Assembly: GCF_009834185.1 (NCBI RefSeq)
Contig: NZ_CP047173.1
Coordinates: 1,391,725-1,455,724, forward strand
Length of the DNA: 64,000 nucleotides
Source of the DNA: Rathayibacter sp. VKM Ac-2760
GTDB lineage: Bacteria > Actinomycetota > Actinomycetes > Actinomycetales > Microbacteriaceae
Direction: 5' to 3'
The notes beneath the pieces are model-generated. The model ran no database searches. It had not been told where the DNA came from and saw only the letters and a program-made list of their open reading frames with translations. Position 1 is the first letter of the stretch; each line of letters starts with the position of its first letter. This document shows, in pieces, positions 18,112 to 58,530 of this stretch. The translations under genes and the position numbers were made by a program.

Positions 18112-18133
18112 CGACGCCCGGGCCTTGCCCCAA

Positions 18134-18196
18134 CCGCGAGATGCCACTTATGAGCGGCGACACCGGCGTGTCGCGCTCATAAGTGGCATCTCGCGG
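18134..18196 (+). repeat. family-1 palindromic element, copy 3
   Basis: CCGCGAGATGCCACTTATGAGCG ... CGCTCATAAGTGGCATCTCGCGG. It carries a compensatory G>A / C>T change relative to copy 2. Confidence 0.85.
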
Positions 18197-18243
18197 GAGG
18201 GGTCGGACGCGGGTGAGCGTCAGACGTCCTGGGCGTCAGCGGG

Positions 18244-25249: not shown

Positions 25250-26272
25250 GTGCGCGCTCTCACCGCCCCCGACGGCACCCCGGAGATCCTCGCCCTGCGA
25301 GCCCTCAAGCTCGGCGACCTCCTCGTGGCCGTCCCCGCGCTCAAGGCCCTGCGCCGCGGGTTCCCCGAGCACCGGCTGATCCTCGCGACCACGCCCTGGC
25401 TCGAGCCGATCGTCGACCTCGTCGACGGCCTCGACGCGCTCGTCCCGACCCTCCGCGGTCTCGACGACCCGCTGCCGGTCGATCCGGGCCGGATCGAGCT
25501 GGCCGTCAACCTGCACGGCAACGGCCCGGAGTCGCGCGACGCCCTGATCGCGCTGGAGCCGCAGCGCCGGCTCGATTTCCGCGTCCCCGCCCTCGACCCG
25601 GATGCGAGCCACGACGACCCGCGCCCGCTCTGGATCGACGGGGAGCTCGAGCGCGCCCGCTGGGCCCGCCTGGTCAACTCCATCGGCCTCGACGCCGACC
25701 CGGAGGACGTGGCCATCGCCGTCCCGGACGCGCCGGCTCCGGTCGCCGGCGCCGCGATCGTGCACATCGGCGCCTTCTACGGCTCGCGCGAGTGGCCGGA
25801 GGAGCGCTTCGCCGCCGTCGCCCGCTCGCTCGCCGCCGAGGGCCACCGCGTCGTCTACACCGGGGGTGCGAACGAGGCCGACCGCGCCCGCCGCGTCGCC
25901 GAGCTGGCCGGCACCGGCGAGGTGCTCGCCGGCACGATCGACCTGACCGGGTTCGCGGCGGTCGTCGCAGCCTCCGAGGTCCTCGTCACCGTCGACACCG
26001 GAGCCGCGCACCTCGCCTCGGCCTACGGCATCCCGTCGGTGGTGATCTTCGGACCGGCGCCGCCCGAGGCCTGGGGCCCGCCGGTGAGCGGACCGCACGT
26101 CGTGCTGACCGACGCGTCGCTCCGCCGCGGCGACGTCTTCTCCTCCGAGCCGGACCCCGCGCTGCTCGCGGTGCAGACCGAGCACGTGCTCGACGCGCTC
26201 GCCGCTCTGCCCTCGCGCGCCGAGGCGCACCTCAGGCGGTCCGCAGCCGCGCTGCCGGGCGGACGGGCGTGA
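25250..26272 (+). CDS. glycosyltransferase family 9 (heptosyltransferase-like)
   Basis: 340 aa. GGAAGGAGG precedes the GTG. Motifs: LRALKLGDLLVAVPALKAL, VHIGAFYGSREWP, VDTGAAHLASAYGIPSVVIFG. Confidence 0.8.
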   Translation: MRALTAPDGTPEILALRALKLGDLLVAVPALKALRRGFPEHRLILATTPWLEPIVDLVDGLDALVPTLRGLDDPLPVDPGRIELAVNLHGNGPESRDALIALEPQRRLDFRVPALDPDASHDDPRPLWIDGELERARWARLVNSIGLDADPEDVAIAVPDAPAPVAGAAIVHIGAFYGSREWPEERFAAVARSLAAEGHRVVYTGGANEADRARRVAELAGTGEVLAGTIDLTGFAAVVAASEVLVTVDTGAAHLASAYGIPSVVIFGPAPPEAWGPPVSGPHVVLTDASLRRGDVFSSEPDPALLAVQTEHVLDALAALPSRAEAHLRRSAAALPGGRA

Positions 26273-27164
26273 CGGTCGCGACCCGCGCGCGGGCCGCCCT
26301 GGGCTGATGGCTGCGCGAGGGGGCGCCGAGGCGGTCGGCGAGCTGCGCGAGGATCCGGCGCTGCAGCCGCGAGACCTGCATCTGCGTGGTCCCGAGCGCG
26401 TCGGCGATCTGCTGCTGCGTCATCTCCTCGACGAAGCGCATCCGGAGCAGCTCGCGCTGGCCGGCCTCCAGCTCCGCGAGCGCCTCGGCCAGACCGTGCC
26501 GGCGGTCGATCGCGGCGAGGTCCGCGTCGTCTCCGCCGAGCGTCTCGCCCAGGCGGACGCCGGTCTCGCCGACCGACTCGTCGAGCGAGAGCGGGTGCCC
26601 CGCCGAGCGCGCGTCCGCGACCTCGGCCGGGTCGACGCCGAGCCGCCGCGCGATCTCGCGATCGGACGGATGACGGCCGAGCTCCTGCGCCAGCTCGTCG
26701 GCGACGACCGCCGAGCGCCGGTGCAGCTCCTGCACCCCGCGGGGCGGCCGGATCATCCAGCCCAGATCGCGGAGATGGCGCTTCAGCTCACCCGTGATCG
26801 TGGGCACCGCGAACGCGGCGAAGCTGTCGCCGCGCTCCGGGCTGAACCGCCGGGCCGCCTTCACGAGACCGACGTAGGCGACCTGCCGGAGATCCGCGCG
26901 ATCGCCGCCGCCGCGGGAGACCCGGTTCGCCATCGCCTCGGCCAGGCCGAGGTGGTCGAGCACGATGCGCTCGCGGATCCGCGCGCCCTCGGCGTCGTCG
27001 GCGCCGGCCGCCGCCTGGAACAGCGAGAGCGTGCGCGCGTCCTTCTCCTCGCGCGGCGATCCGGCCGCCGGGGGGAGCGCGGGCGGCACGGAGGCGGGCG
27101 GCACAGGGGCGGGCGGCACGGGGGCGGGGAGTGCAGTGGCGGTGGCGAGAACGACCGTGCTCAT
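26232..27164 (-). CDS. RNA polymerase sigma factor, SigB/SigF/SigG (group 3) type
   Basis: The ATG at 27164 follows GGAAGGGG. Region 2 (LRQVAYVGLVKAARRFSPERGDSFAAFAVPTITGELKRHLRD) and region 4 (RELLRMRFVEEMTQQQIADALGTTQMQVSRL) are present. The 3' end overlaps the convergent GT9 gene by 41 nt. Confidence 0.8.
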   Translation of the reverse strand: MSTVVLATATALPAPVPPAPVPPASVPPALPPAAGSPREEKDARTLSLFQAAAGADDAEGARIRERIVLDHLGLAEAMANRVSRGGGDRADLRQVAYVGLVKAARRFSPERGDSFAAFAVPTITGELKRHLRDLGWMIRPPRGVQELHRRSAVVADELAQELGRHPSDREIARRLGVDPAEVADARSAGHPLSLDESVGETGVRLGETLGGDDADLAAIDRRHGLAEALAELEAGQRELLRMRFVEEMTQQQIADALGTTQMQVSRLQRRILAQLADRLGAPSRSHQPRAARARVATVTPVRPAARLRTA

Positions 27165-27353: not shown

Positions 27354-28200
27354 CACCTCCGGCTCGCAGATCCGCGTCCGGCTCGCTGAATCTCCCGTTT
27401 CCCGCGAGCCGAGCCTGTTTCCGCGAGCCGAGCCTCGACCCGTGGCACCTCCGGCTCGCAGAATGACGTCCGGCTCGCCGAATCGCCTGATTCCCGCGAG
27501 CCGAACCGGTTTCCGCGAGCCGAACCTCGGCCCGCGTCACCTCCGGCTCGCAGATTCGCGTCCGGCTCGCTGAATCGTCTGAATCCGGCGAGCCGAACGG
27601 GTTTCCGCGAGCCGAACCTCGGTCCTCGTCACCTCCGGCTCGCAGATTCGCGTCCGGCTCGCTGAATCGCCCGTTTCCCGCGAGCCGAACGGATTTCCGC
27701 GAGCCGAGCCTCGACCCGTGGCACCTCCGGCTCGCAGAATGACGTCCGGCTCGCCGAATCGCCCGATTCCCGCGAGCCGGACCGGTTTCCGCGAGCCGAA
27801 TCTCGGTCCGAGTCACCTCCGGCTCGCAGATTCGCGTCCGGCTCGCTGAATCGCCCATTTCCCGCGAGCCGGACCGGTTTCCGCGAGCCGAACCGCGACC
27901 CGCGTCACCTCGGGCTCGCAGAATGACGTCCGGCTCGCTGAATCACCTGATTCCCGCGAGCCGAACGGGTTTCCGCGAGCCGAACCTCGGTCCGCGTCAC
28001 CTCCGGCTCGCAGATTGACGTCCGGCTCGCCGAATCGCCTGATTCCCGCGAGCCGGACCGGTTTCCACGAGCCGAGCCTCGGCCCGCGTCACCTCCGGCT
28101 CGCAGATTGACGTCCGGCTCGCCGAATCGCCCGTTTCCCGCGAGCCGAACCGGTTTCCGCGAGCCCGACCTCGGCCCGCGCCACCTCCGCCCCGCAGACC
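27354..28200. repeat. tandem array of nine exact-length 92-bp units plus a degenerate tenth
   Basis: Unit starts (CACCTCCGGCTCGCAGA) are at 27354, 27446, 27538, 27630, 27722, 27814, 27906, 27998, 28090 and 28182. Each unit holds 2x CCGGCTCGC and 2x GCGAGCCG (mutually inverted). Confidence 0.95.
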
Positions 28201-28302: not shown

Positions 28303-29844
28303 ATGTCTGAGCTCACCCCGCCCTCCGATCGCGCCCACGACGCGCACCCGTTCACCACCGCGACCGGGAGCGACGTCCGCGTCCGCTTCTGCCCGTCCCC
28401 GACCGGGACGCCGCACGTCGGCCTCATCCGCACCGCCCTGTTCAACTGGGCCTACGCGCGGCACACCGGAGGCACCTTCGTCTTCCGGATCGAGGACACC
28501 GACGCGGCCCGCGACAGCGAGGAGAGCTACGAGCAGCTCATCGACGCGCTGCAGTGGCTGAAGCTCGACTGGGACGAGGGCGTCGGAGTCGGCGGCCCGC
28601 ACGGCCCGTACCGCCAGTCCGAGCGCAGCGACGTCTACACCGACGTCATCCAGCGCCTGCTCGCCTCCGGCCACCTCTACGAGAGCTACTCGAACGCGGA
28701 GGAGATCGACGCCCGCAACGAGGCGGCCGGCCGCGCCAAGCAGCACGGCTACGACAACCACGACCGCGACCTCACCGAGGAGCAGCGCGCCGCCTTCCGC
28801 GCCGAGGGCCGCAGCCCCGCGCTGCGCCTGCGCGTCCCGGACGCCGACCTCTCCTTCGACGACCTCGTCCGCGGCGAGATCACCTTCCCGGCCGGCTCGT
28901 TCAGCGACTTCGTCGTCGTCCGCCCCAACGGCCAGCCGCTCTACACGCTGGTGAACCCGGTCGACGACGCGCTCATGCAGATCACCCACGTCCTCCGCGG
29001 CGAGGACATCCTGCCCTCCACCGCGCGCCAGATCGCGCTGTACCACGCGCTGATCGACATCGGAGTGACGACGTTCGTCCCGCGCTTCGGTCACCTCCCC
29101 TACGTGATGGGGGAGGGCAACAAGAAGCTCTCCAAGCGCGACCCCTCGGCCAACCTCTTCCACCACCGCGACCGCGGCTTCATCCCCGAGGGCCTGGTCA
29201 ACTACCTCGCCCTGCTCGGCTGGTCGCTCACCCACGACCGCGACGTCTTCTCGATCGACGAGATGATCGCCGCCTTCGACGTCGCCGACGTGAACCCCAA
29301 CCCGGCCCGCTTCGACCTCAAGAAGGCCGAGTCGATCAACGGCGACCACATCCGCCTGCTCGCGGTCGACGACTTCACCGAGCGCACCATCCCCTACCTG
29401 ATCGCCGCCGGCGTTCTCGAGGGCCGGCCGACCGCCGACCAGCGCGCCGTCCTCGACGCCGCCGCCCCGCTCGTCCAGGAGCGGATCGGCCTGCTCGGCG
29501 AGGCGCCCGGCATGCTCGGCTTCCTCTTCACCACCGCCGACGCCCTCTCCTACGACGAGGACGCGCTGAAGGGCCTGCCCGCGAACGCCGGCGAGGTCCT
29601 CGCCGCATCGATCGGCGCCCTCGAGCTCGTGCCCGAGGGGGAGTGGCTGACCGCTTCGATCCAGGAGGCGCTCGCCGGCGCCCTGATCGAGGGCCTGGGC
29701 CTCAAGCCCCGCATCGCCTACGGGCCGTTGCGCACCGCGATCTCGGGCCGCCGCGTCTCGCCGCCGCTGTTCGAGTCGATGGAGATCCTCGGCAAGTCCG
29801 AGTCGATCGCCCGCCTCGCCCGCCTCGCCGACACCCGGAGCTGA
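28303..29844 (+). CDS. gltX: glutamate--tRNA ligase
   Basis: 513 aa with the HIGH-type motif [15 protein letters not shown] and the KMSKS-type KLSKRD. Confidence 0.95.
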
Positions 29845-30960: not shown

Positions 30961-31032
30961 TGGGGTATGGTGTAATTGGCAACACGACTGATTCTGGTTC
31001 AGTTGTTCTTGGTTCGAGTCCAGGTACCCCAG
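30961..31032 (+). tRNA. tRNA-Gln (anticodon CTG)
   Basis: A hand-folded cloverleaf: acceptor TGGGGTA/TACCCCA, D stem GTGT/ACAC, anticodon stem ACTGA/TCAGT with loop TTCTGGT, and T arm CTTGG-TTCGAGT-CCAGG. CCA is not encoded. Confidence 0.9.
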
Positions 31033-31240
31033 CACTTCTCCTCCTCGCCCTGAGGATCCTCGCCCGGCTGTCGCCCGCCGCTGTTCCGGCTGTGTCGTTC
31101 CGGCAGCGCCGCGCGTCTCGCGCAGGGCCGCTGCATCCCCCGCCCGGCCGACGCCCGACTCCTCCCGGCATGCCACGATGAACCTGTACATCGCTCAGAA
31201 ACCCGCCTCCCGCGGGTTCCGAGAAGGGGGTCTCTCGTCC

Positions 31241-32905: not shown

Positions 32906-33679
32906 ATGAGGCAGGGTCGGACGCGCGCGCTCGGCGGCGCCGCGCTGGCGCTGACCGCGGTGCTCCTGCTGGCCGGCTGCAGCGGCGACTCCTTCCGCGC
33001 GGACTTCGCGCGGACCTTCGGCAGCGACGAGTCGGTCGCCGATGTGGAGCTCGCGAGCGTCGACGACAGGCCGTTCAGCGGCGGAGTGAGCGCCGAGGTC
33101 GTGGCCCGCGAGGACCTGTCCGATGCCGACCTGACGTCCCTCGCCGCCCGGTTGGCCACCTTCGCCGCGAAGCGTCCGACGGGCGACGTGCGGATCCTCC
33201 TCGACGCCGAGGACCTCACCCTGCCCGTCTCCGGCGACGACGCCCTTACGTCCGGCCGGATCGCGGCCGCGCTCGCGCTCCGGGACGACTCGCGGGTCTC
33301 GTCCCTCGCCCTCGCCGCCGACGACAGCGAGGACCGCGTCAGCGGACTGAGCCTCTTCCTGGCGGAGGGGACGTCCGCCGCGGACGCCTTCGCACTCGCC
33401 CGCGACGCGCCCGCGCTGCTCCCCGACGCCCCACCCCTGCACATCAGCGTCCAGAGCGCCGACCGCGCGCAGCTCGTCACCGGCTCCCCGGGCCCGTGGC
33501 TCGACGACGCGGAGCGCCTCTGGACCGCGATCTCGGCCGCCGTCCCCGCCGCGGGCTTCCGCGCCGACTCCGACCACCTCGACGTGACCCTGACGAGCGA
33601 CGCCGACCGCGCCGCGGCGACGCTCGCCGCCGACACTGTCCCCAGCGACGGCATCTCCGTCACGTTCTCCGCCCCCTGA
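32906..33679 (+). CDS. hypothetical lipoprotein
   Basis: The ATG at 32906 gives MRQGRTRALGGAALALTAVLLLAGCSG (signal peptide plus lipobox LAGC). I recognise no domain. Confidence 0.6.
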   Translation: MRQGRTRALGGAALALTAVLLLAGCSGDSFRADFARTFGSDESVADVELASVDDRPFSGGVSAEVVAREDLSDADLTSLAARLATFAAKRPTGDVRILLDAEDLTLPVSGDDALTSGRIAAALALRDDSRVSSLALAADDSEDRVSGLSLFLAEGTSAADAFALARDAPALLPDAPPLHISVQSADRAQLVTGSPGPWLDDAERLWTAISAAVPAAGFRADSDHLDVTLTSDADRAAATLAADTVPSDGISVTFSAP

Positions 33680-33770
33680 CCGCCGAGGACGCACCCCGTT
33701 CGCTGCCCATCGCACAGCGAGGTGCAGGTCGTCACGGTCGGAGGGCGACCGATCAGCCGGAGGAGGCTCC

Positions 33771-33926
33771 ATGAAGCGCAAAGACGTGACCGCCGAGGCT
33801 CTCCGCCGTGCCGCAGAGCGATCGACGCGTGCCTCGGCCGCCTTGGAGAACCGCTCGGTGCCGACCGATACCGTCCGCTCCGACAGGGTGGCTCGATTCC
33901 TCGCTGCCCGGGGGTCCCGCGCCTGA
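33771..33926 (+). CDS. small ORF, VbhA-like (Fic-inhibitory antitoxin motif)
   Basis: 51 aa, below the ORF-track cutoff. GGAGGA lies 5 nt upstream of the ATG. It contains S-A-A-L-E-N, matching the [S/T]xxxE[G/N] Fic-inhibition motif. No Fic gene is adjacent. Confidence 0.3.
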   Translation: MKRKDVTAEALRRAAERSTRASAALENRSVPTDTVRSDRVARFLAARGSRA

Positions 33927-34109
33927 CCGGCGTCGGTCCCGCGTGCACGGGTGATGCTCTGCACGCTGATCGTGTGGCAGATGCTTCCCGACGCGGTCGC
34001 GGTGAAGGGCGGCATAGGTGTGAAGCTCCGTCTCGGTGAGCCAGGCGACAAGTCCGCGGACGGGAAGGGCGCGAGCGACGCGGTCACGCCGCCCGCTCGC
34101 ACAGCCCGC

Positions 34110-34183
34110 CGCGCAACATCAGCCCGGAGCCGACCTCAGCCACGATGGCGGACGGCGACCGCTCTCAGCCGACGTTCTGCGCG
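34110..34183 (+). repeat. family-2 palindromic element, copy C (degenerate)
   Basis: CGCGCAACATCAGCCCGGAG ... CTCTCAGCCGACGTTCTGCGCG, with the centre CCACGATGGCGGACGG. Confidence 0.65.
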
Positions 34184-34255
34184 GCCCGCGCGCGCCGTCG
34201 GTCTCGTCCAACACTCCGATCGCTCGGAATCGAGTTCCGTATTACGATAATCGTC

Positions 34256-34519
34256 ATGAGCGACGGGGAGACGATCGACGGCCGGCCGGTGACGGAGGAG
34301 CAGATCGCAGAGTGGGCGGCGGAGGCGGAGCGCGGCTACGACATCGATGCCCTCAAGGCGAGAGGCCGAGGACGCCCCGGTAGAGGCGCTCTCCCCTCGC
34401 AGGTCGTCGCCGTTCGGCTCACCCTGGACGAGCTCGCCGCACTCGACGAGCGCGCCGCCCGGGAGCACAAGACGCGCTCCGAGGTCGTCCGCGAGGCGCT
34501 CGCCGCGTCGGCGGCGTGA
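34256..34519 (+). CDS. ribbon-helix-helix (CopG-like) antitoxin
   Basis: 87 aa from the ATG at 34256. The C-terminal RHH is VVAVRLTLDELAALDERAAREHKTRSEVVREAL. GTGA overlap with the next ORF. Confidence 0.7.
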   Translation: MSDGETIDGRPVTEEQIAEWAAEAERGYDIDALKARGRGRPGRGALPSQVVAVRLTLDELAALDERAAREHKTRSEVVREALAASAA

Positions 34520-34755
34520 AGGTCCACCCTTCGGCGCTCAAGCACGGGATCTCGGCGGACGACGCCGTCCACGCCGCAGACCTGGCGCTCTGGGTCGAGG
34601 AACTCGACGACGACTCTCCGGCGCGTCAGCTCCGCCTGGGCTTCGATACCCGCGGTCGGCTCCTCGAGACGGTCGTCCTGATCTTCGACAGCGGCCACGA
34701 ACTCGTCATTCACGCGATGAAGGCCCGCCCGGGCATGATCGAGCTCCTGCCCTGA
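34516..34755 (+). CDS. BrnT-like small toxin candidate
   Basis: 79 aa. The motif order KHGIS ... GRLLETVV ... VIHAMKARP resembles the BrnT family (KHGVS ... ISARKA). It is coupled to the RHH gene, but the gene order is the reverse of classical BrnTA. Confidence 0.5.
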   Translation: MKVHPSALKHGISADDAVHAADLALWVEELDDDSPARQLRLGFDTRGRLLETVVLIFDSGHELVIHAMKARPGMIELLP

Positions 34756-34779
34756 CGGGCCGCTGACGGGTCGTTCAGG

Positions 34780-34795
34780 CCGACGCGCGCGTCGG
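34780..34795. terminator. 16-bp perfect palindrome CCGACGCGCGCGTCGG between convergent genes
   Basis: It lies between the toxin-like ORF (+) and the DUF2075 gene (-). There is no U-tract. Confidence 0.3.
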
Positions 34796-34875
34796 TGCCG
34801 GTCAGGGGCGATACGTCTGTGCGGCTCCCCGCTGCGTCCTCCCTCTTCCGAACGTCGGCGACTTCTCGCGCCCCC

Positions 34876-36594
34876 TCAGAAGTAGCGCGCCAGGTGCTCG
34901 CGGAGCGCCTCGTCGCAGACGTGCACGTACGTCCCCCTGATGCCGCGCGTGAGCAGCACCGTGTAGATGTTGCGGACGTACGCGAGCAGGTCCTCGTCGC
35001 TGTAGGTGATGCCGAGCTTCGGGTTGTTCTCGCGCCCCTTCTTGTCGAAGTAGTGCGAGCGGTCGAAGACGACGCGTCCCGAGGCGGTGTCGAAGCGCAG
35101 ATCGCGGCCGATGATGACGCCCGCGTAGTTGAGGTCGTAGCCCTGCACCGTGTGGATCGAGCCGACCTCGTCGATCGCGCCGGGGGAGTTGATCCAGTCG
35201 CGCTGCGTCTGATTCCAGCGGAGCGACTCGTCGCCGATCACGATGTCGAAGGCGCTCCTGTCCGTCTTCGTGACCCACTTCCACGCGTAGCCCGCGACCA
35301 GTCGTGAGAGGCCGTGCTCCCGGTCGCGCTCGACGATCGAGCGGCGCAGCTCGCCCGGATCGTCGAAGAAGCGCAGGTCGTACTCGCCGAAGTCCTCGCG
35401 CGCCGACGGCGGATCATCGGACAGCGCGGCGCGGACGTAGCCGACGTAGTCCTTCTCCGCGGCGATGCGCATCTGCGAGCGGAGCGGGTAGACCCGGCCC
35501 TCGGCCGACGCCTCCGCGAGGACGGCGCGGGTGACCGTCGCGGGCAGGTCCGCTGGGCGGACGGTCTGCGCGGTGTCCAGCATCAGGATCGTGTGCCTGC
35601 TCCGCGCGCGGATCCAGTCCAGCTGCGTGTACTCGAGCGAGTCCTCGCCGAACAGCCGCTCGTTGATGTCGATGAACTTGCGGTTGAGCGGCCCCGAGGG
35701 CTGGTTCGCCCGCTGGCTGAGCCGGTGCGCTTCGTCGACGAGGAGCAGATCGAACGGCTCGTCGCTCTCGCCGACCTGGAAGGGCGTCAGCACCAGGTCC
35801 TTCGACAGTCCCGGGGTGAGGCTGAAGACCCGGGAGATCGACCCGCGCAGCGACTGCTGCGGCACGACGAGGCCGACCCGCAGCGTCGACAGCAGCTCCG
35901 CGTGGCCCGGGGTGAAGAACTCGCTGAAGATCGAGTCGCCGTCCAGCGGCTCCTCCGGGTCGTGCTCGCGGATGTCCTGCAGCAGCTTCAGCAGGTAGAT
36001 GGCGACGACGGTCTTCCCGGTCCCCGGATCGCCCTGCACGACGACGGTGCTGGGACCGCCGGACTCGAGGTCGGTGAACAGCCCTTCGAGGATGTCCTCG
36101 ACCGCGATCGCCTGATCGTGGTTCAGCGCCTTGAACGGAGACAGCTTGAAGAGATCGCTGTTGACGATCTCGGGGAGCGTCCGCTGGAAGAGCTTCTCCT
36201 CGGTGCGGAGGACCTCGAACACCTCGTCGAACGTCCGGCGGTAGGACGCGCGGTCGAAGTAGTCGGCGTCGGTGATGCCGGCGTTGTGATTGAGGACAGC
36301 CAGGCGGCCCTCCCCCGAGAGCATCCGCAGGAGGAACGATTCGAGGTCGAGGCAGGCCGACTTGTTGAAGGTGTCGTCGAGGACGACCCGCACCCGGTCC
36401 AGCCGGCTCTTCTCCGGCGAGTCGAGGTGCTGGCGCAGTCGCCCCTCGGCGTTCAGCGACTCGCCGACGTAGACCTCCGAGGCGCTGTCGAGCACGTAGA
36501 CGACGGGCCAGTTCCGGTGCCGCGGGTCGGCGGCGCCCCACACGCGCACCCGATCGGAGTCGAACGGGAGTCGCTCGACGCTAAAGCCGGTCAT
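34876..36594 (-). CDS. GIY-YIG-like nuclease / DUF2075 (Schlafen-type helicase-like ATPase) protein
   Basis: 572 aa. The N-terminus is VVYVL-x6-VYVGES-N-x4-RLRQH. Walker A is GDPGTGKT and Walker B is LLLVDEAHRL. The C-terminal part is DUF2075-like. Confidence 0.85.
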   Translation of the reverse strand: MTGFSVERLPFDSDRVRVWGAADPRHRNWPVVYVLDSASEVYVGESLNAEGRLRQHLDSPEKSRLDRVRVVLDDTFNKSACLDLESFLLRMLSGEGRLAVLNHNAGITDADYFDRASYRRTFDEVFEVLRTEEKLFQRTLPEIVNSDLFKLSPFKALNHDQAIAVEDILEGLFTDLESGGPSTVVVQGDPGTGKTVVAIYLLKLLQDIREHDPEEPLDGDSIFSEFFTPGHAELLSTLRVGLVVPQQSLRGSISRVFSLTPGLSKDLVLTPFQVGESDEPFDLLLVDEAHRLSQRANQPSGPLNRKFIDINERLFGEDSLEYTQLDWIRARSRHTILMLDTAQTVRPADLPATVTRAVLAEASAEGRVYPLRSQMRIAAEKDYVGYVRAALSDDPPSAREDFGEYDLRFFDDPGELRRSIVERDREHGLSRLVAGYAWKWVTKTDRSAFDIVIGDESLRWNQTQRDWINSPGAIDEVGSIHTVQGYDLNYAGVIIGRDLRFDTASGRVVFDRSHYFDKKGRENNPKLGITYSDEDLLAYVRNIYTVLLTRGIRGTYVHVCDEALREHLARYF

Positions 36595-36907
36595 GCCTGG
36601 TGCTTCTCCCGCGAGCCTTCTCCACCGGGTACTTGGCCCTGGTCCTCTCGAGCTTCGCGAGGACGATCTCGCCCGCGTCCACCCCGAGTCGGTCGGCGAG
36701 CAGGAGAGAGTAGGTCAGCACGTCCGCGAGCTCGTCGACGGCCGAGGGGAGGTCGCCCTCGCCCCACTGGAAGCACTCGAGCAGCTCGCCCGACTCGATG
36801 CTGATGCTCTTCGCGAGGTTCTCCGGCGTGTGGAACTGCGCCCAGTCGCGCTCGCGCACGAAGGCGCGGAGGGCGTCGAGGACCTCGTCATCGGGCATGG
36901 CTGCCAA
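36581..36907 (-). CDS. MazG-like nucleotide pyrophosphohydrolase
   Basis: 108 aa with acidic metal-binding helices ESGELLECFQW and VDELADVL. The 3' end overlaps the DUF2075 start by 14 nt. Confidence 0.8.
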   Translation of the reverse strand: MAAMPDDEVLDALRAFVRERDWAQFHTPENLAKSISIESGELLECFQWGEGDLPSAVDELADVLTYSLLLADRLGVDAGEIVLAKLERTRAKYPVEKARGRSTRHDRL

Positions 36908-37066
36908 CCTACAGCGGCGGTGCGGCGGTCACCCTGCCCCCGCTCGCTTCGACGCCCGAGATCCGCCGAGCGTGCGATCGCGGCGAGGCCCCCCCTTCGC
37001 GTCCACTGCCTCGCCACCCGCCACCGACCGGACCCGAGCGGGGCTTCGCCGCGCCGCCAGGCCCTG

Positions 37067-37561
37067 TCACATGTCCGGCCGGCCGAGTTCCTTCCGCAAC
37101 TGCAGAGCCGTCGGCTCGTAGCCGAGCGACTCGTACAGCCCGCGGGCCGCGGTGTTGAAGCCGAAGACGTTCAGCGCGAGCGCCCGGTAGCCGCGCGAGC
37201 GGGCGTGCTCCTCCGCCAGCAGCATCGCCGCGCGGCCGAACCCGCGGCCCCGCTCGGCCGGGTCGACCTCGACGTCCCAGACGTAGGCGACGCCCTCGAG
37301 GTCCTGCGGGTGCGGGCCGACCCAGAGCACCCCGACCGGGCGTCCGTCGTCGAGGATCCGCAGCAGGTCGTGGCCCGGCGCGAGGTCGCCGCCCGGGAAG
37401 AGCCGCTCGTCGTTCGCGTCCGCGTTCCGCACCGCGGCGGCCTCGTCGTCGCCCGCTCGGATCCGATCAGCGACGTACGTCCTGCGTTGGACGGACCTCC
37501 ACGCCGTCAGTTCGTCGGGTGGGAGCGGCGCGAGGGAGACGGACATGCCCCACGGTCCCAC
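37067..37561 (-). CDS. GNAT-family N-acetyltransferase
   Basis: 164 aa with an acetyl-CoA binding motif RGRGFGRAAM. The start could be the ATG at 37546. Confidence 0.8.
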   Translation of the reverse strand: MGPWGMSVSLAPLPPDELTAWRSVQRRTYVADRIRAGDDEAAAVRNADANDERLFPGGDLAPGHDLLRILDDGRPVGVLWVGPHPQDLEGVAYVWDVEVDPAERGRGFGRAAMLLAEEHARSRGYRALALNVFGFNTAARGLYESLGYEPTALQLRKELGRPDM

Positions 37562-37568
37562 ACCGCCG

Positions 37569-37638
37569 GCACGACGTCAGCTGAGGCACCGGCTCAACGC
37601 CGATGGTGGATGACGAGCGGTCTCAGCTGACGTCGTGC
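37569..37638 (+). repeat. family-2 palindromic element, copy D
   Basis: Perfect 17-bp arms GCACGACGTCAGCTGAG / CTCAGCTGACGTCGTGC. Both arms carry the same A>G variants relative to copy B. Confidence 0.8.
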
Positions 37639-37661
37639 GCCGCCGAGGCGCCGGAGTCCGC

Positions 37662-39038
37662 TCAGGAGCGGTCCGCGTCCGAGCTCTCGGCCGCCGCGGT
37701 CTGCTCCGCGTGCTTCTTCTTGCCGAGGCGGGTCGCCAGGAAGAGCAGCGTGCCGACCACGACGTAGCCGGCGGTGCCCAGCCAGACCACGCCGGTCTGC
37801 TGGGTCAGCAGCACGGCGCTCGTGATGATCGCCAGCACCGGCACGACGCGCGGCACCGAGAAGTGCGGGTGGTCGACGCGGTCCTTCTTCAGCACCAGCA
37901 CCGAGACGTTCGCCGAGATGAAGACCAGGAGCAGCAGCAGCACGGTCGTCTCGGCGAGGGTTCCGACGTCGCCGACCAGGCTCAGCGCGGCGGTCGCGCC
38001 GCCGACCACGACGATCGACACCCACGGCGTGCGGCGGTTCGGCAGCACCCGGCCGAATGCGCTCGGCATCAGCCCCGACTTCGCCAGCCCGAAGCCGACC
38101 CGGCTCGCCATCACCATGAACAGCAGCGCGCCGTTCGCGATCGCGATCAGCGCGATCAGGCCGAACAGCCACGGCGGCACCGCCACTCCGCTCGCCGCGA
38201 CCACGTCGAGCAGCGGGCCCGTCGACTCCGCGAGCTCCTCGTTCGGCAGCACGATCACCGCGCCGAGGGCGATCAGCAGGTAGACGACGGCGGCGGTGAT
38301 CAGTGCGCCGAAGAGCGCCCGCGGGTAGACCTTCGACGGGTTCCGCACCTCCTCCGCCATGTTGGCCGCCGCCTCGAAGCCGAGGAAGGAGAAGAAGGCG
38401 ACGATGGACGCGGCGAACGCGCCCTGCAGCGGAGCGACGTCGGGCGCGAACTCGAAGATCCGGCCCGGGTCGCCGTTGCCGCCACCGAAGAAGATCGCTG
38501 CGCAGACGATCACGATCACCAGTCCGCTCACCTCGATCACCGACGCGACCAGGTTCGCGGTGAGCGACTCCTTCACTCCGCGCAGGTTGATCAGCGTGAG
38601 GACCGCGATGAAGACGACGGCCGTCGGTGCGGCCGGCACGTCGAGCAGCGCGCCGAGGTAGTCGCCGGCGAAGGCGTTGGCGAGCGAGGCCGCGGTCGTG
38701 ATCCCGGACGCCATCATCAGGAAGCCGACGAGGAACGACAGGTACGGCTTGCCGAACGCCCGGTCGGCGTAGCGGGCGGCGCCGCCGGCGTGCGGGTACT
38801 TGGTGATCAGCTCGGCGTAGGTGCCGGCCGTCAGCAGGGCGATGACGAGCGCGATGAGCAGCGGCAGCCAGATCACGCCGCCGACGTCGGTGGCCATCGT
38901 CCCGACCAGCGTGTAGATGCCGGCGCCAAGCGTGTCGCCGACGATGAAGGCGAAGAGGAGCGGGCCGGTGATGACCTTCTTCAGCGATCCTCCGCCCTTC
39001 GCGGGGGCGGCGGACTCGGCGTTCGTGGTGTCGGTCAT
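37662..39038 (-). CDS. APC-family amino acid permease
   Basis: 458 aa from the ATG at 39038. It is polytopic, with GDTLGAGIYTLVG and other typical APC sequence. Confidence 0.85.
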   Translation of the reverse strand: MTDTTNAESAAPAKGGGSLKKVITGPLLFAFIVGDTLGAGIYTLVGTMATDVGGVIWLPLLIALVIALLTAGTYAELITKYPHAGGAARYADRAFGKPYLSFLVGFLMMASGITTAASLANAFAGDYLGALLDVPAAPTAVVFIAVLTLINLRGVKESLTANLVASVIEVSGLVIVIVCAAIFFGGGNGDPGRIFEFAPDVAPLQGAFAASIVAFFSFLGFEAAANMAEEVRNPSKVYPRALFGALITAAVVYLLIALGAVIVLPNEELAESTGPLLDVVAASGVAVPPWLFGLIALIAIANGALLFMVMASRVGFGLAKSGLMPSAFGRVLPNRRTPWVSIVVVGGATAALSLVGDVGTLAETTVLLLLLVFISANVSVLVLKKDRVDHPHFSVPRVVPVLAIITSAVLLTQQTGVVWLGTAGYVVVGTLLFLATRLGKKKHAEQTAAAESSDADRS

Positions 39039-39242
39039 CCGGCGATTCCAACGAGAACCGGCCCGGGGCGCAACCCCCGCCGCGAGATCGCTTCGGAATT
39101 TCTCACGATCGAAACACGCGAGGCGAGCGGCCGGGCCCAGGGCCGGGCGGAGGAGGCGGAGCGCCACCGACCCGCCCGTCCGCCCCGCCCCCGCCCCGGT
39201 GCGCCACCATGGGCGCACGCCCCGCGACGGATCGAGGACCCC

Positions 39243-40565
39243 GTGCACGACATCACCCCGCGCCCCGGCCTGCCCGAGCGCCTCGCGCGGCTGATCCGCC
39301 TGCGCACGGTGTCCGCCGAACTCGAGACCGTCGACGAGCCGCTCGCGCTGCTGCGCGAGCTCTACCCGCTGACGCACGAGCGCCTCGAGCTCGAGCGCAT
39401 CACCGACCGCGGACTCCTCTACCGCTGGCCGGGCCGCGACTCCGGGGCGGATCCGCTGGTCCTGATGGCGCACCTCGACGTGGTGCCGGTCGAGGACCCC
39501 GCCGCCTGGACGCACCCGCCGTTCGGCGGCGAGATCGTCGGCGGCGCGGTCTGGGGCCGCGGCGCGCTCGACGACAAGGGACCGCTCGTCGTCGTGCTCG
39601 AGGCCGTGGAGAACCTGCTGGCCGCCGGCGTCGTCCCCGCCCGCGACGTCCTGCTCGCCTTCGGCGGCGACGAGGAGGTGCGCGGATCCGCAGCGTGCGC
39701 CGTCGCCGCCACCCTGCGCGAGCGCGGGGTCGTGCCGTGGCTGGTGCTCGACGAGGGCAGCGCCGTCGTCGAGGCGCCGCTGCCCGGCGTCGTCGGCCCG
39801 GTCGCGATGATCGGCGTCGGCGAGAAGGGCCTGCTCACGCTGCGCCTGACCGCGCGCTCGGCCGGCGGCCACGCCTCCGCTCCGCCGCGCCTCACCGCCG
39901 TCGGCCGCCTGGCGCGCGGTCACCCGGCTCACCCCGTCGACCTTCCCCGCCTGGGTCCCGAGGCGCTCGCCCGCGCGCTGACGCTCCTCGCCGAGCGCGC
40001 GCCCGGGCGTCGCGGCACTCTCTACCGGCTGCTCGGGTCGCGCCCGCAGGTCGCCGCGCCCCTGCTCGCCGCGCTCGGCGGCGAGACCGCCGCGCTGGTG
40101 CGCACCACGATCGCCCCGACGATGCTGCGCGCCGGCACCGCCGACAACGTGCTCGCGGCGGAGGCGTCGGTCGTGCTGAACCTGCGCCTCGCGCCCGGCG
40201 AGACGGTGTCGAGCGCCACCGAGCGCGTCCGCCGCCGCGTCCGCGACCGCGAGCTGACCGTCGAGGTCGTCGCGGGGGAGGACCCGTCGCCGCAGTCGCC
40301 GAGCGACGGCGCTCCGTTCGCCGCCGTGCGGGCGGCGCTCGCCGTGTCGCACCCGGACGCCGCGGTCGTGCCCTACGTGATCAACGCGGCCACCGACTCC
40401 CGGCACCTGCACCGCTTCGCGCCCGCCGTCTACCGCTTCGCGCCGCTGCTGATGTCGAAGGAGCAGCGCGCCGGCATCCACGGGGTCGACGAGCGCGTCG
40501 ACGTCGCGGCGCTCGAGCGCGGCGAGGTCTTCCACCGCGCCCTGATCACGGGGCTCGGAGCCTGA
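39243..40565 (+). CDS. M20/M25/M40-family metallopeptidase
   Basis: GTG at 39243. Motifs: LMAHLDVVP, RGALDDKG, GGDEEV. Confidence 0.8.
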   Translation: MHDITPRPGLPERLARLIRLRTVSAELETVDEPLALLRELYPLTHERLELERITDRGLLYRWPGRDSGADPLVLMAHLDVVPVEDPAAWTHPPFGGEIVGGAVWGRGALDDKGPLVVVLEAVENLLAAGVVPARDVLLAFGGDEEVRGSAACAVAATLRERGVVPWLVLDEGSAVVEAPLPGVVGPVAMIGVGEKGLLTLRLTARSAGGHASAPPRLTAVGRLARGHPAHPVDLPRLGPEALARALTLLAERAPGRRGTLYRLLGSRPQVAAPLLAALGGETAALVRTTIAPTMLRAGTADNVLAAEASVVLNLRLAPGETVSSATERVRRRVRDRELTVEVVAGEDPSPQSPSDGAPFAAVRAALAVSHPDAAVVPYVINAATDSRHLHRFAPAVYRFAPLLMSKEQRAGIHGVDERVDVAALERGEVFHRALITGLGA

Positions 40566-44172: not shown

Positions 44173-46014
44173 ATGGGCAAGAAGCGCAATCAGGGACGAT
44201 CCGGAGGCGGGCGCTCCGGCGGATCGGGCGGTCAGGGCGGCGGCCGCACGGCCGAGACCGCGCTGATGGTGCGGTTCCGCAGCTGGTACCGCTCCCACCT
44301 GGCCGACGTCGCCGTGATGCACGAGCACCTCGACGTCGACGAGGCCGTCGAGGTCCTCACCGATCTCTTCGCCATGACCCGCGACCTCCGCCCGCGCGGC
44401 TCGTTCGCCCAGCCCGACGCAGAGCTGCTCGAGGCCGTCTTCGACCAGATCGAGGCCGACCTCTCCGGTGAGGAGAGCGAGGCCGACCTCGACGACACCC
44501 TCTTCACCGTCGCCGAGGTGGTCGAGCACTTCCTCGACTTCCTCACCGACGAGGACCTCTGGACCGGCACCGACGAGGAGCTCGACGAGTGCCAGGCCGT
44601 GCTCGACGAGGTCCTCGACCTCGCCGGCTCCTTCGTCGAGGCCGTCCTCGACGACCTGCTCGAGGTCGACGAGGTCCCGGACGCCGAGATGCTCACCGCC
44701 GCCCGCGCCACCGCGCTCGTGCACGCCGCCGACGTCGTGGTCGAGCACCTCGCCGCGACCGCCGACGCGACGATCACTGAGCGCGCCGCCCGCGAGATCG
44801 TGGTCGAGGCGGGCATCTCCTCCGCCGGCTCGACCCCGAGCGACGACGCCGTCCGCATCCCCGTCTCGGCCTGGTGGGACGCGCTGGTCGCCTCCGACGT
44901 GCTCGAGACCGACGGCTCGACCGCGGGCCTCGGCGACGCCGCCCGGCCCTGGCGCAGCTCCGACGCTCGCGAGGCGACGGTCGAGCGCATCGCCTACATC
45001 GCCCGCTTCGTCGAGCAGTGGCTCGCCAGCTCGCAGGAGGCGCTCGCCGCCGCCGACACCGAGAACGGCGCCTTCTCGCCGCGCGAGCGCGCGATCACGA
45101 CGACCGACGCCGTCCTGGTGCGGATGGCCGTCGCCTGCCAGGCGCAGATCCACGAGGGCCTCGTCGTCGGCGAGCTGGTCGACGAGCTCGCCGCCGACCT
45201 CGACGTCTCGCTCGAGGAGGCGCTCGACGAGCGCGAGCGGATGGTCGGCTCGGCCGAGCGGATGCTCGACGACGCCGCCGAGCTCGGCCTGCTGCTGCAC
45301 TCGCCCGAGTTCGGCTACGTGCTGCCCGAGGGCCTGCAGCCCGTCCTCGCCTCGGTGGTCCGAGCGAGCATCGTGCTGCTCGGCGCCCGCGACGCGACCC
45401 GCCTCGAGATCCTCGACGAGGCGACGGAGGACACCGACGCCTCCTACGCCCTGCACGTCTCGCTCCTCGGCACCAAGCCGGTCGTCTGGCGCCGGCTCGA
45501 GCTGTCCTCGGAGTCGTCGCTGCGCGATCTGCACCTCGCGCTGCAGCTCTCGCTCGGCTGGACCGACGCGCAGCCGCACTACTTCAGCGTCGGCGTGCCC
45601 GACGAGGAGCGCGCGCCGATCGGCTCGCCGGCCGATGCCGAGGAGCTCGGCGCCGACCTGGTCGACGAGGGCGGCGTCGCGCTCGCCGAAGTGCTCGAGA
45701 GCGTCGACGACGAGCTGTTCTACGTCTACGACCTCGAGGACGAGTGGCGCCACGTCATCCGCCTCGAGTCGGTCTCGCCGCTGCGGGCCGCGCTGCCGCG
45801 CTGCACGGGGGCCCGGGGCGCCGCTCCGCTCGACGCCCCCGGTGGTCCGGCCGCGTGGGCCGACACGGTCCGAGCCGCGACCGATCCGGCCTCGGCCGAT
45901 CACGCGGAGGCGCTGGACGCCCTCGGCCTCGCCGCCGGGGCGACCTTCGACCCGGCGAGCGTCGACGTCGACGGCATCAACCGATCGCTCGGCCTGCTGC
46001 GCGCGGCGGTCTGA
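44173..46014 (+). CDS. plasmid pRiA4b ORF-3-like domain protein with acidic N-terminal region
   Basis: 613 aa. GGAGG precedes the ATG. The C-terminal region is YALHVSLLGTKPVVWRRLEL...LHLALQLSLGWTDAQPHYF...FYVYDLEDEWRHVIRLE (PRiA4_ORF3 pattern). Confidence 0.75.
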   Translation: MGKKRNQGRSGGGRSGGSGGQGGGRTAETALMVRFRSWYRSHLADVAVMHEHLDVDEAVEVLTDLFAMTRDLRPRGSFAQPDAELLEAVFDQIEADLSGEESEADLDDTLFTVAEVVEHFLDFLTDEDLWTGTDEELDECQAVLDEVLDLAGSFVEAVLDDLLEVDEVPDAEMLTAARATALVHAADVVVEHLAATADATITERAAREIVVEAGISSAGSTPSDDAVRIPVSAWWDALVASDVLETDGSTAGLGDAARPWRSSDAREATVERIAYIARFVEQWLASSQEALAAADTENGAFSPRERAITTTDAVLVRMAVACQAQIHEGLVVGELVDELAADLDVSLEEALDERERMVGSAERMLDDAAELGLLLHSPEFGYVLPEGLQPVLASVVRASIVLLGARDATRLEILDEATEDTDASYALHVSLLGTKPVVWRRLELSSESSLRDLHLALQLSLGWTDAQPHYFSVGVPDEERAPIGSPADAEELGADLVDEGGVALAEVLESVDDELFYVYDLEDEWRHVIRLESVSPLRAALPRCTGARGAAPLDAPGGPAAWADTVRAATDPASADHAEALDALGLAAGATFDPASVDVDGINRSLGLLRAAV

Positions 46015-46026
46015 GCTCGTCGCCGA

Positions 46027-46094
46027 CAGAACATCAGCCGGGAGCGGACCTCCTCCACCATCGTGGACGAGGTCGCTTCTCAGCTGATCTTGTG
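46027..46094 (-). repeat. family-2 palindromic element, copy E (inverted orientation)
   Basis: CAGAACATCAGCCGGGAG ... CTTCTCAGCTGATCTTGTG. The centre CCACCATCGTGGA is the reverse complement of the CCACGATGGTGGA-type centre of the other copies. Confidence 0.7.
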
Positions 46095-58519: not shown

Positions 58520-58530
58520 TCCGGCCCACT

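Follow-up and report, generated by a model that had tools for sequence, protein, structure and literature searches.

Genes within and around the interval

The window, i.e. the whole 64-kb stretch of Rathayibacter DNA that was analysed (74% GC), contains five copies, A to E, of a hairpin repeat called family-2. Two of these copies, C (34110–34183) and D (37569–37638), flank a 3.4-kb interval whose gene content agrees with that listed in an earlier note, i.e. a toxin-antitoxin (TA) pair, a MazG/DUF2075 pair and a GNAT gene. The TA pair is carried by the + strand. It includes an RHH_1 antitoxin-like gene (ribbon-helix-helix, CopG-type; 34256–34519; Pfam RHH_1, E 2.9e-7) and its partner, a 79-aa ORF encoding a putative toxin (34516–34755), whose start overlaps the RHH stop by 4 nt. 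This ORF has no Pfam, NCBIfam or PADLOC match. The two genes are found together on Rhodococcus and Arthrobacter plasmids, and in two records of Rhodococcus plasmids (H5 and H6) the neighbour homologous to the 79-aa ORF bears the label 'toxin'. On actinobacterial plasmids, the TA pair stands alone, no other part of the C–D block having been found on plasmids.

The other genes of the interval are carried by the − strand. They encode a DUF2075/SLFN-g3 (Schlafen-group-3-type) helicase (34876–36594; Pfam PF09848, E 3e-66), a MazG-like nucleotide pyrophosphohydrolase (36581–36907; Pfam PF12643, E 2e-15), whose gene overlaps the DUF2075 start, and a GNAT acetyltransferase (37067–37561; Pfam Acetyltransf_1, E 2e-18). 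The helicase gives only weak matches with PADLOC, and its orthologues in the relatives L002, L006 and L007 are 84–92% identical. Just beyond the interval, on the same strand, lies an amino-acid permease gene (37662–39038; AA_permease in the L001 gene calls) with hairpin D at its 3' end and with orthologues in L002–L009 that are 88–94% identical. On the left side, a tRNA-Gln gene (30961–31033) is located 3 kb from the block and therefore, as the earlier note had it, outside the interval. A flotillin gene and a lipoprotein gene, both conserved core genes (92–96% identity), separate the tRNA gene from the block. No recombinase was noticed in the annotated part of the window.

A conserved hairpin repeat at gene 3' ends

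Copies A, B, D and E all lie 12–49 nt past a stop codon. Copy A (7238–7305) is located 15 nt past the stop of a (−) gene (7321–8706), copy B (16850–16918), which belongs to the CACAG-centre subtype, 49 nt past the stop of a (+) gene (15385–16800), and copy E (46027–46094) between the stops of two convergent genes (44266–46014, +, and 46121–47095, −). Copy D starts about 22–25 nt past the permease stop codon and stops just upstream of the GNAT start. Unlike these four copies, copy C is more than 60 nt away from every stop codon. More largely, across 38 copies, family-2 elements sit just past stop codons, chiefly between convergent genes. By gene context, 20 copies lie between convergent genes, 7 between tandem and 1 between divergent ones, versus 22/63/28 in the background (Fisher p = 5e-4 once orthologues and pair partners are removed). 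Besides the five copies of the window, 28 copies occur in metagenome contigs, many of them at contig ends according to our own reading of the coordinates, which fits a high-copy repeat. In other genera, 72 loci amounting to 1.46 Mb contained no copy.

The metagenome copies fall into two centre subtypes and form five composite pairs whose partners are 2–3 nt apart; another hairpin family adjoins them. Family-1 hairpins show the same behaviour as family-2. The conserved outer stem of the family-2 hairpin is 19 bp long, the outer arms read GCACAAC ... GTTGTGC (AAC and GTT being at least 90% conserved) and the palindrome present within each arm is no longer than 8 nt (TCAGCTGA). Among 37 copies, double changes affect 20 of the 34 base pairs of the hairpin and amount to 85 cells, versus 50 ± 5 in shuffles and 33–46 in slid controls. 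The family-2 hairpin is thus kept by compensatory changes, and its copies are enriched at the 3' ends of genes.

The elements can also come and go while gene content stays the same. Copy E has orthologues in L002, L003, L005 and L008 and is absent from L004, L006 and L009; in all, five species carry it and three cleanly lack it, with unchanged flanking genes. The earlier note had regarded elements lacking any content polymorphism as evidence against a role in cassette mobility, and this site provides such a case.

The family resembles the enterobacterial REP/BIME sequences, which are also high-copy, genus-restricted, GC-rich imperfect palindromes found only in extragenic DNA. In both cases, most elements follow the 3' ends of genes or separate convergent genes, subtypes (two in family-2) form abutting pairs and associate with other hairpin families, and compensatory changes preserve the hairpin. 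The established roles of REPs are 3'-end protection and transcription attenuation, and the same roles may be proposed for family-2. However, there is no sequence similarity between them, the host of family-2 is a high-GC actinobacterium, and the family-2 unit is a hairpin of about 70 nt with a 19-bp conserved outer stem, whereas a REP has 35–40 nt. The architecture, with two inverted conserved arms and a spacer forming one long hairpin of about 70–80 nt, is reminiscent of REPINs, as are the numerous and clustered copies and their presence or absence at orthologous sites without change in the flanking genes. Nevertheless, the family-2 arm, limited to its 8-nt palindrome, lacks the REP stem-loop. 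Furthermore, REPINs, which are mobilised by RAYT transposases, are described as distributed randomly in extragenic space (Bertels & Rainey 2011, PMC3116915), unlike family-2, which is strongly biased towards convergent and 3' spacers.

Among actinobacteria, where few terminators have the canonical stem followed by a U-tract, Mycobacterium tuberculosis has TRIT, a terminator motif of conserved sequence found at well-defined 3' ends of mRNAs (PMC3384566). Family-2 is likewise a repeated hairpin with a conserved sequence in an actinobacterium, positioned right past stop codons, often between convergent genes. It differs from TRIT in showing no sequence relation to it and in lacking a T-tract. As T-tracts are absent at family-2 hairpins, a terminator role can only be inferred. 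Folding energies of the sense and antisense strands show no decisive strand bias, so that action at the RNA level is not established over action at the DNA level.

The hairpins also recall integron attC sites and the boundaries of pdif modules, i.e. palindromes located past ORFs, of which same-orientation copies bracket accessory genes such as TA pairs. They could thus be imagined as attC-type sites and the enclosed genes as the cassettes of an integrase-less (CALIN-like) array. Family-2 copies are indeed imperfect palindromes of about 70–80 nt directly past ORFs, and their outer arms, including the conserved AAC and GTT, are one mismatch away from the attC core consensus, RYYYAAC/GTTRRRY. Integron cassettes are, however, co-oriented and about 0.5–1 kb long, whereas family-2 copies are 3–17 kb apart among housekeeping genes, favour convergent pairs and also occur as abutting pairs, and the block genes lie on both strands, three of them in one operon. 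Furthermore, conservation covers the entire 19-bp stem and not only the core, the region examined yielded neither a tyrosine recombinase nor any other cognate recombinase, and comparative genomics shows that the C–D block is no single unit. The hairpins fit such a system neither in their distribution and spacing nor in the orientation of the genes and the pattern of conservation, and an integron-like origin is extremely improbable.

Copies C and D and their flanks

The covariance model R1 matches copy C at 34106–34185 (64.9 bits, E 2e-14) and copy D at 37564–37643 (71.1 bits, E 4e-16); since C and D were both included in the R1 training alignment, these scores confirm the coordinates and are no independent test of them. 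The same orientation that the earlier note had attributed to the two copies was recovered: both carry the central loop CGATGG on the + strand, and the centre of C aligns better with D in direct than in inverted orientation (score 11 versus 6). Copy D folds on the permease sense strand with −45.8 kcal/mol (z −6.0). Copies A, B and D have fold z-scores between −6.0 and −9.3, and copy E has one of −4.5. Copy C, which belongs to the GATG-centre subtype, only reaches −1.9 (+ strand) and −2.7 (− strand); it is a degraded hairpin. No orthologue of copy C was found in any of the relatives compared.

The similarity between C and D exceeds the hairpin and runs on asymmetrically into one flank, in agreement with the direct orientation. 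Blastn aligns 146 nt (71% identity, E 3e-17) between a left arm, 34051–34193, and a right arm, 37509–37651, both on the + strand. The right arm includes the intact GNAT start, hairpin D and about 12 nt; the left arm includes hairpin C, about 10 nt and, joined to C on the − strand, a sequence (34051–34109, aligned to 37509–37567) that corresponds to the GNAT 5' UTR and the first ~17 codons (GGVTASLAPFPSADLS). Beyond the hairpin, the similarity spans 58–59 nt and extends into these 17 codons, with a score reached by none of 2000 random windows. The left arm also matches the permease-GNAT junction of L002 (72.8%), and the relic, once translated, matches the N-terminal GNAT sequences of L002, L006 and L008. 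C and D are a true direct repeat, which probably arose when the permease-GNAT junction was once duplicated or recombined. As the longest exact match between them is, from our own reading of the blastn alignment, about 8 nt, they are no present-day recombination substrate.

One way to obtain such a repeat would be the recombination, in this lineage and in one step, of a hairpin-GNAT-MazG-DUF2075-TA segment into a resident permease-GNAT junction, either by a Campbell-type event or by one homologous and one illegitimate crossover. The resident hairpin and GNAT would have become C and then lost everything past 17 codons, and C and D would mark the ends of the 3.4-kb segment because the junction was homologous and not through any hairpin activity. 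This would account for a direct repeat that includes GNAT 5' sequence foreign to the element, with order and orientation kept. The C-side relic is closer to the GNAT N-termini of L002/L008 than to that of the window's own GNAT (alignment scores 29 versus 22), which fits the meeting of two alleles, and GC falls to 0.66–0.70 over DUF2075. However, L002 and L007 display the same permease-(GNAT)-MazG-DUF2075 order without C, so that this arrangement looks ancestral rather than newly inserted. Furthermore, at 71% identity the event would have to be old or the donor distant, a further deletion of some 420 nt of GNAT would be required, and the intermediate genome was not observed among the relatives. 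Overall, this scenario appears rather unlikely.

Independent variation of the modules in related species

The comparison involves species-level Rathayibacter relatives, the species itself being represented by a single identical 6.3-kb contig. The GNAT gene lies directly downstream of the permease gene in seven of eight Rathayibacter species, and is a core neighbour of the permease rather than an accessory gene. Among these seven, only L002 has a family-2 hairpin at the junction, the others having another hairpin family or none; in L003, L006, L007, L008 and L009, a different long hairpin family occupies the D site. The L002 hairpin (11390–11470) is orthologous to D and lies within the collinear alignment; its centre is of the other subtype, and it shares 87% identity with copy B of the window. 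This indicates that copies undergo replacement or conversion, and the elements may thus have some recombinational activity.

The MazG-DUF2075 pair, also present in Naasia (L067), is a conserved 2.05-kb unit (34867–36911 in the window) that sits at two different positions among L002, L006 and L007, with no family-2 hairpin at either of its borders in these genomes. Compared with the closest relative, L002, the variable segment is 33684–34846, which includes orf51, the GNAT relic, C and the RHH/79-aa pair; blastn homology breaks at its ends, and L002 carries an AbiEi/AbiEii pair in its place (AbiEii Pfam match). The variable boundaries (33683/34847 and 36917/37082) are away from the hairpins, C being 427 bp within the variable segment and D within the collinear block 37082–39119.

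These results bear directly on the proposal of the earlier note that the elements mediate, or mark the ends of, a mobilised or recombined cassette. In this reading, family-2 copies are recombination or transposition sites that move the content lying between same-orientation copies, the 3.4-kb block being one such cassette. The direct orientation of C and D around accessory-type genes, the variability of the region among species, and the gain, loss and replacement of elements at orthologous sites speak in its favour. Nevertheless, the limits of variation against L002 do not coincide with the elements, and the same genes occur without a flanking pair of elements, GNAT as the permease neighbour and MazG-DUF2075 as a unit of its own. 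Most copies are single and lie between conserved convergent genes, C is degraded, the C/D similarity takes in coding sequence and only the TA pair of the block is known from plasmids. Therefore, while the region is genuinely variable and C and D are a true direct repeat, it is very unlikely that the hairpins mobilise or delimit a 3.4-kb unit.

Between permease-GNAT and flotillin/tRNA-Gln, species differ in TA modules, MazG-DUF2075, the AbiE pair and a BREX system, found in L003. This content, the nearby tRNA-Gln and the MazG-DUF2075 pair of L006, which directly adjoins the tRNA gene, could evoke a genomic island inserted by an integrase between tRNA-Gln and the permease gene, the hairpins being incidental. 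Such an island is highly improbable: the tRNA 3' end is repeated nowhere in the window (no tRNA-derived att site), the region showed no integrase and the flotillin and lipoprotein genes in between are core genes.

The best explanation, to which we give a probability of roughly 0.7, is that family-2 is a REP/BIME-like family of conserved hairpins of about 70 nt proper to Rathayibacter and located in short spacers past stop codons, and that the 3.4 kb is a mosaic not mobilised by the hairpins. Copy D would simply be the hairpin at the 3' end of the permease gene. Copy C would be no independent functional copy but the decayed remnant of a second permease-GNAT junction (hairpin and first 17 GNAT codons), probably left by an old duplication or by illegitimate recombination within the hot spot of TA and defence modules. 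The mosaic would combine the core GNAT, the 2-kb MazG-DUF2075 pair, either separately mobile or separately lost, and the plasmid-type RHH toxin-antitoxin pair; since it joins one core gene to two modules that vary independently of each other, it would not be a cassette moved by repeats. The hairpins probably act as 3'-end hairpins at the RNA or single-stranded DNA level, and could be U-tract-less termination or pause sites or, instead, stop 3' exonucleases and thereby stabilise mRNAs. Globally, apart from being a hot spot of TA and defence modules, the locus is ordinary, and family-2 hairpins may spread or be exchanged among the 3'-end sites of genes.

The interval between copies C and D

The family-2 hairpin, a repeat of about 70 nt, is present on both sides of a 3.4-kb block, as copies C (34110-34183) and D (37569-37638). 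These two elements, already described in the earlier note, are confirmed by a repeat search of the window, which groups 34115-34179 and 37573-37637 with the copies at 7241 and 46030, and by covariance-model matches (C at 34106-34185, 64.9 bits; D at 37564-37643, 71.1 bits); these scores are not independent tests, since C and D are among the nine copies used to build the model. Their same orientation also holds, because CGATGG lies in the loop on the + strand in both and D+ gives a better alignment with the centre of C than D- does. The gene content between them is likewise borne out: an RHH_1 gene (34256-34519, +), an overlapping 79-aa ORF (34516-34755, +), a DUF2075/SLFN-g3 helicase gene (34876-36594, -), a MazG-like gene (36581-36907, -) and a GNAT gene (37067-37561, -).

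From this geometry, it had been proposed that C and D mediate, or mark the ends of, a mobilised cassette. This interpretation stands only in part: the interval does lie in a variable toxin-antitoxin (TA)/defence hot spot, and C and D are a true repeat, but the idea of a mobile 3.4-kb cassette moved or bounded by the hairpins fails. The note itself had named, as observations that would speak against its idea, the same genes in relatives without the elements, or the elements without any difference in gene content; both the relatives and the turnover of the hairpin at the site of copy E, between the same flanking genes, go against the cassette.

The relatives compared are eight other Rathayibacter species, whose permeases are 88-94% identical to the amino-acid permease of the window (37662-39038, -). 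Same-species material consists of one identical 6.3-kb Logan contig, and exact-protein look-ups with the DUF2075, 79-aa and MazG-like proteins returned one such contig or nothing. The closest relative (locus L002) displays the order permease-hairpin-GNAT-(Phd-like pair)-MazG-DUF2075-(AbiEi/AbiEii)-lipoprotein-flotillin. The order is permease-MazG-DUF2075-RHH fragment-flotillin in L007, which has lost the GNAT gene, permease-GNAT-DUF4190-flotillin-MazG-DUF2075-tRNA-Gln in L006 and permease-GNAT-DUF4190-flotillin in L009. Rathayibacter iranicus (L003) carries permease-GNAT-RHH remnant-truncated flotillin, then a BREX system (BrxL, PglZ), and L005 carries permease-GNAT-RHH remnant with fragments of flotillin and DUF2075. 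The last two loci reach a contig end, L004 after permease-GNAT and the C-terminal part of flotillin, L008 after permease-GNAT.

An element-bounded mobile cassette is rejected on three grounds. Firstly, the GNAT gene accompanies the permease at the level of the genus, being kept beside it in 7 of the 8 species. Secondly, MazG-DUF2075 is a separate unit of 2.05 kb, whose homology ends at window positions 34867 and 36911 in L002, L006 and L007; it occupies two different positions among these three relatives, neither of its borders carries a family-2 hairpin, and the pair is also found near the permease in Naasia. Thirdly, the breakpoints with L002 fall off the hairpins. The segments without homology to this locus are 33684-34846 and 36918-37081 (breakpoints 33683/34847 and 36917/37082); therefore, C lies 427 bp inside a variable segment and D within a collinear block. 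Searches of plasmids and phages with the whole block never matched it as a unit: plasmids matched only the TA pair, and two phage-like contigs without annotation matched only DUF2075. No att repeat derived from tRNA-Gln and longer than 12 nt was found.

The interval delimited by permease-GNAT, flotillin and tRNA-Gln is a hot spot for the turnover of RHH-TA, Phd-like TA, AbiE, BREX and MazG-DUF2075 modules. The RHH_1 protein and its 79-aa partner are small and encoded in the same orientation with a 4-nt start/stop overlap, and the pair recurs by itself on Rhodococcus and Arthrobacter plasmids, with the partner annotated 'toxin' in two listed records. Judged from these sequence features, it is a type II TA module with the RHH_1 protein as antitoxin and the 79-aa protein as putative toxin, the latter having no family match in Pfam, NCBIfam or PADLOC. 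More generally, PADLOC and NCBIfam searches with six or seven proteins gave weak partial matches but no defence-system or named-family call for the MazG-like, DUF2075, 79-aa and orf51 proteins. At the two variable junctions, L002 carries other modules than the window: GNAT and MazG are separated by genes for a Phd/YefM-like antitoxin and its 113-aa partner (11970-12763), and an AbiEi/AbiEii type IV TA pair (15037-16502) lies where the window has orf51, the GNAT relic described below, C and the RHH-TA pair. The proposal that the decayed region (33684-34110) is a remnant of this AbiEi/AbiEii pair was dropped, as the two have no similarity.

Several other observations concern this region. Besides PglZ and the Lon-like protease BrxL, the BREX-type system of R. 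iranicus (L003 13598-20710) comprises other large genes; it is located at the equivalent of the tRNA-Gln/flotillin side of the hot spot in the window, and the flotillin gene of this species is truncated. The small orf51 (33771-33926; 51 aa, MKRKDVTAEALRRAAERSTRASAALENRSVPTDTVRSDRVARFLAARGSRA), which appears among the gene calls of the Logan contig and is included in the segment missing from L002, has no match in Pfam, NCBIfam or PADLOC. The DUF2075 region matches at 67% over 2 kb a contig that was obtained from human faecal samples and is recorded as 'Bacteriophage sp.' with no annotation (H13, MT836409.1, 6660-8686). On the other side of the permease, a gene labelled from its sequence as a candidate M20-type peptidase (39209-40565) separates the permease from a FAD-linked oxidase; it is present in L001, L006 and L009 and missing from L002, where the oxidase is directly beside the permease, and no family-2 hairpin is found at its borders.

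Copy C as a relic and hairpin turnover at orthologous sites

The similarity between C and D exceeds the hairpin, as 34051-34193 and 37509-37651 align over 146 nt with 71% identity (E 3e-17). The pairing of C and D is genuine and corresponds to an old direct duplication, in which the longest exact match, read from the alignment, is about 8 nt. The additional 58 nt left of C correspond to the beginning of the GNAT gene, with its 5' UTR and its first 17 codons: on the minus strand, the flank of C gives GGVTASLAPFPSADLS, where the intact GNAT of the window has GMSVSLAPLPPDELT and the equivalents in L002 and L006 have VMSVSVAPFPPAELA and GGVTVSLSPLTASDLA, respectively. This match was equalled by none of 2000 random windows, and the flanks of the other family-2 copies are unrelated. 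The homology with GNAT stops at 34051, and the flank of C is slightly nearer the GNAT alleles of L002 and L008 than that of the window itself. This GNAT 5'-end extension, the degraded hairpin (fold z-scores of -1.9 and -2.7) and the lack of C in all the relatives lead to the conclusion that C is the relic of a second permease-GNAT junction, and neither an independently inserted nor a functional element.

Such a relic might have originated from an old in-situ duplication followed by a deletion, or from two alleles meeting during a recombination that would have brought in part of the 3.4-kb block. A one-step duplicative insertion would have produced both C and the block; it is considered quite unlikely, because L002 and L007 already have GNAT and MazG-DUF2075 in the same order without C.

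At the site of copy E (46027-46094), the flanking genes are the same in all the loci named here. A hairpin is present there in the window, L002, L003, L005 and, in a degenerate form, L008; L004, L006 and L009 have none, their two stop codons being 11-47 nt apart. The site of copy D, after the permease stop codon, carries in L002 a family-2 hairpin within a continuous 2-kb alignment, with the centre of the other subtype and 87% identity to copy B (16850-16918) of the window. In L003, L006, L007, L008 and L009, this spacer holds long hairpins that belong to another family, GTCGCGAACGGC...GCCGTTCGCGAC; hairpins of this family and of a second one (CCGTTGGACAC...GTGTCCAACGG) are located at L003 11388-11452, L006 11352-11414, L007 11453-11512, L008 11471-11530 and L009 11352-11410, and also at L007 11379-11441 and L008 11397-11459. 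The spacer is almost missing in L004 and L005. Copy D is therefore the present occupant of a slot after the permease stop codon that bears a hairpin in most species.

Family 2 among gene-end palindromes

The window, whose G+C content is 74%, contains five copies of family 2, the fifth (16854-16914) having been added by a pattern scan. Each is a hairpin of about 70 nt with conserved arms CACAACATCAGCTGAGA / TCTCAGCTGATGTTGTG, and two subtypes can be distinguished by their centre, GATG (A, C, D and E) or CACAG (B). Five more copies were found in about 146 kb from the eight other Rathayibacter species, and none in 1.46 Mb from neighbouring genera (72 loci). A metagenome scan for the conserved arms yielded 29 contigs, in which the covariance model finds 28 further full copies; many of them lie, according to their coordinates, at contig ends, as expected for a high-copy repeat. 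At the gathering threshold, Rfam recognizes only tRNA-Gln in the whole window, so that the hairpin has no Rfam family, and an E-value scan of 33700-38000 gave only chance-level matches.

According to gene calls made with our own GC3-based caller, a stop codon precedes four of the five copies in the window by 12-49 nt: A (7238-7305) downstream of the (-) gene 7321-8706, B downstream of the (+) gene 15385-16800, D downstream of the permease, and E between the stop codons of a convergent gene pair. None of 38 copies is within a called gene. Where both neighbours were called, they are convergent in 20 cases, tandem in 7 and divergent in 1, versus 22/63/28 for all spacers, a bias that persists after removal of orthologues and pair partners (Fisher p = 5e-4). 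Five metagenome contigs carry composite pairs made of a GATG-centre and a CACAG-centre copy 2-3 nt apart (L092 228-390; L097 1527-1690; L099 1423-1585; L110 10145-10307; L090 1075-1237), and two carry copies beside another hairpin family, GCGCAGCGGCGTATCGAGA...TCTCGATACGCC (L088 2835-3002; L104 2755-3137). This is a BIME-like mosaic organisation, of which the window contains no abutting subtype pair.

The hairpin is maintained by compensatory changes. Among 37 aligned copies, 20 of the 34 stem pairs changed on both sides, the double-changed cells numbering 85, compared with 50 +/- 5 after shuffling and 33-46 for slid controls; all five covariation measures exceed both kinds of controls, and an A-U to G-C switch at columns 13/69 is found in 12 copies. 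The arms hold just one local palindrome, the 8-nt TCAGCTGA, within which compensatory changes keep the pairing between arms while breaking the palindrome (for example CAGCCGAG/CTCGGCTG in the L002a copy). As read from these alignments, the conserved feature is therefore the long hairpin and not a dimer-binding site. Fold z-scores range from -6.0 to -9.3 for A, B and D and reach -4.5 for E.

The hairpins are not canonical intrinsic (Rho-independent) terminators, as no T/U tract follows the stem-loop: the flanks of all copies are GC-rich and devoid of any T run, and neither C nor D is among the terminators predicted by a scan of 33600-38000. Sense-strand folding energies and G-U counts are mixed, 10 of the 14 hairpins in tandem context folding better in the sense orientation, five of these being orthologues. 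A role at 3' ends, in termination, pausing or as a block to exonucleases, is inferred, and the profile of family 2 functionally recalls TRIT, a conserved terminator motif of Actinomycetota, a phylum in which canonical terminators are scarce (PMC3384566).

Globally, family 2 joins the extragenic palindromes of REP/BIME type, a class already known at gene ends, as a new member specific to the genus. Like these, it is an imperfect palindrome of conserved sequence scattered in many copies, is strictly extragenic with a bias towards 3' ends and convergent spacers, forms a stable hairpin kept by compensatory substitutions and, in metagenome contigs, builds mosaic clusters of alternating subtypes. 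In REPIN-RAYT systems each arm is a REP stem-loop that bears a conserved tetranucleotide at its 5' end, but the arms of family 2 hold nothing beyond the 8-nt palindrome. Compared with MITEs, it has inverted termini, its ends are not sharply defined, and no consistent direct target-site duplication is visible, given these ill-defined ends, when occupied sites are compared with empty ones or when the sequences beside the aligned copies are inspected; neither a transposase nor an integrase gene was seen in the region examined. Integron attC sites have R''/R' cores RYYYAAC...GTTRRRY, their cassettes are co-oriented, contain a single ORF and lie about 0.5-1 kb apart, and an IntI integrase or a dense cluster of attC sites goes with them. 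The family-2 core GCACAAC/GTTGTGC is one mismatch from this consensus, but an attC/gene-cassette array is ruled out by the spacing of 3-17 kb, the preference for convergent genes and the presence of block genes on both strands. The dif/pdif sites were also dropped, as there is no resemblance to the architecture of Xer sites. Among the Rathayibacter papers retrieved, none was found to describe these hairpin families.

Other repeats of the window and significance of the hairpins

Family 1 hairpins (CGCGAGATGCCACTTGTGAGCG...CGCTCACAAGTGGCATCTCGCG, about -50 to -58 kcal/mol) are located at 2003-2072, 3997-4064, 18131-18200 and 58528-58597; all four directly follow stop codons and two are between convergent genes. 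A 92-bp unit composed of inverted CGGCTCGC.../...GCGAGCCG half-sites is repeated in tandem 9.2 times with 87% matches (27354-28198), and this array fills a 1.2-kb spacer between the divergent genes 26232-27104 (-) and 28303-29844 (+), the latter resembling, by the N-terminus of its predicted product, a gltX-type Glu-tRNA ligase gene. One similar stretch of unit length is found at L008 2677-2816. A CRISPR was dropped for this array because it has no unique spacers.

Families 1, 2 and 3 of Rathayibacter might together be undescribed actinobacterial REPIN/BIME-like non-autonomous mobile hairpins that home to post-stop spacers and replace one another at orthologous sites. Through microhomology, copies would occasionally anchor illegitimate recombination, and relics such as C would thereby record the points at which accessory modules were inserted into the TA/defence hot spot. 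This broad reading is tentative, with roughly one chance in five of being correct.

Nothing in these results would surprise a specialist. For annotation, they remove a false lead, as high-copy gene-end hairpins in the same orientation around accessory genes are insufficient to call a mobile cassette. For Rathayibacter, they reveal several families of conserved hairpins of about 70 nt at gene 3' ends, with a REP/BIME-like organisation, which break short-read assemblies and could be strain-typing markers and candidate 3'-end signals.
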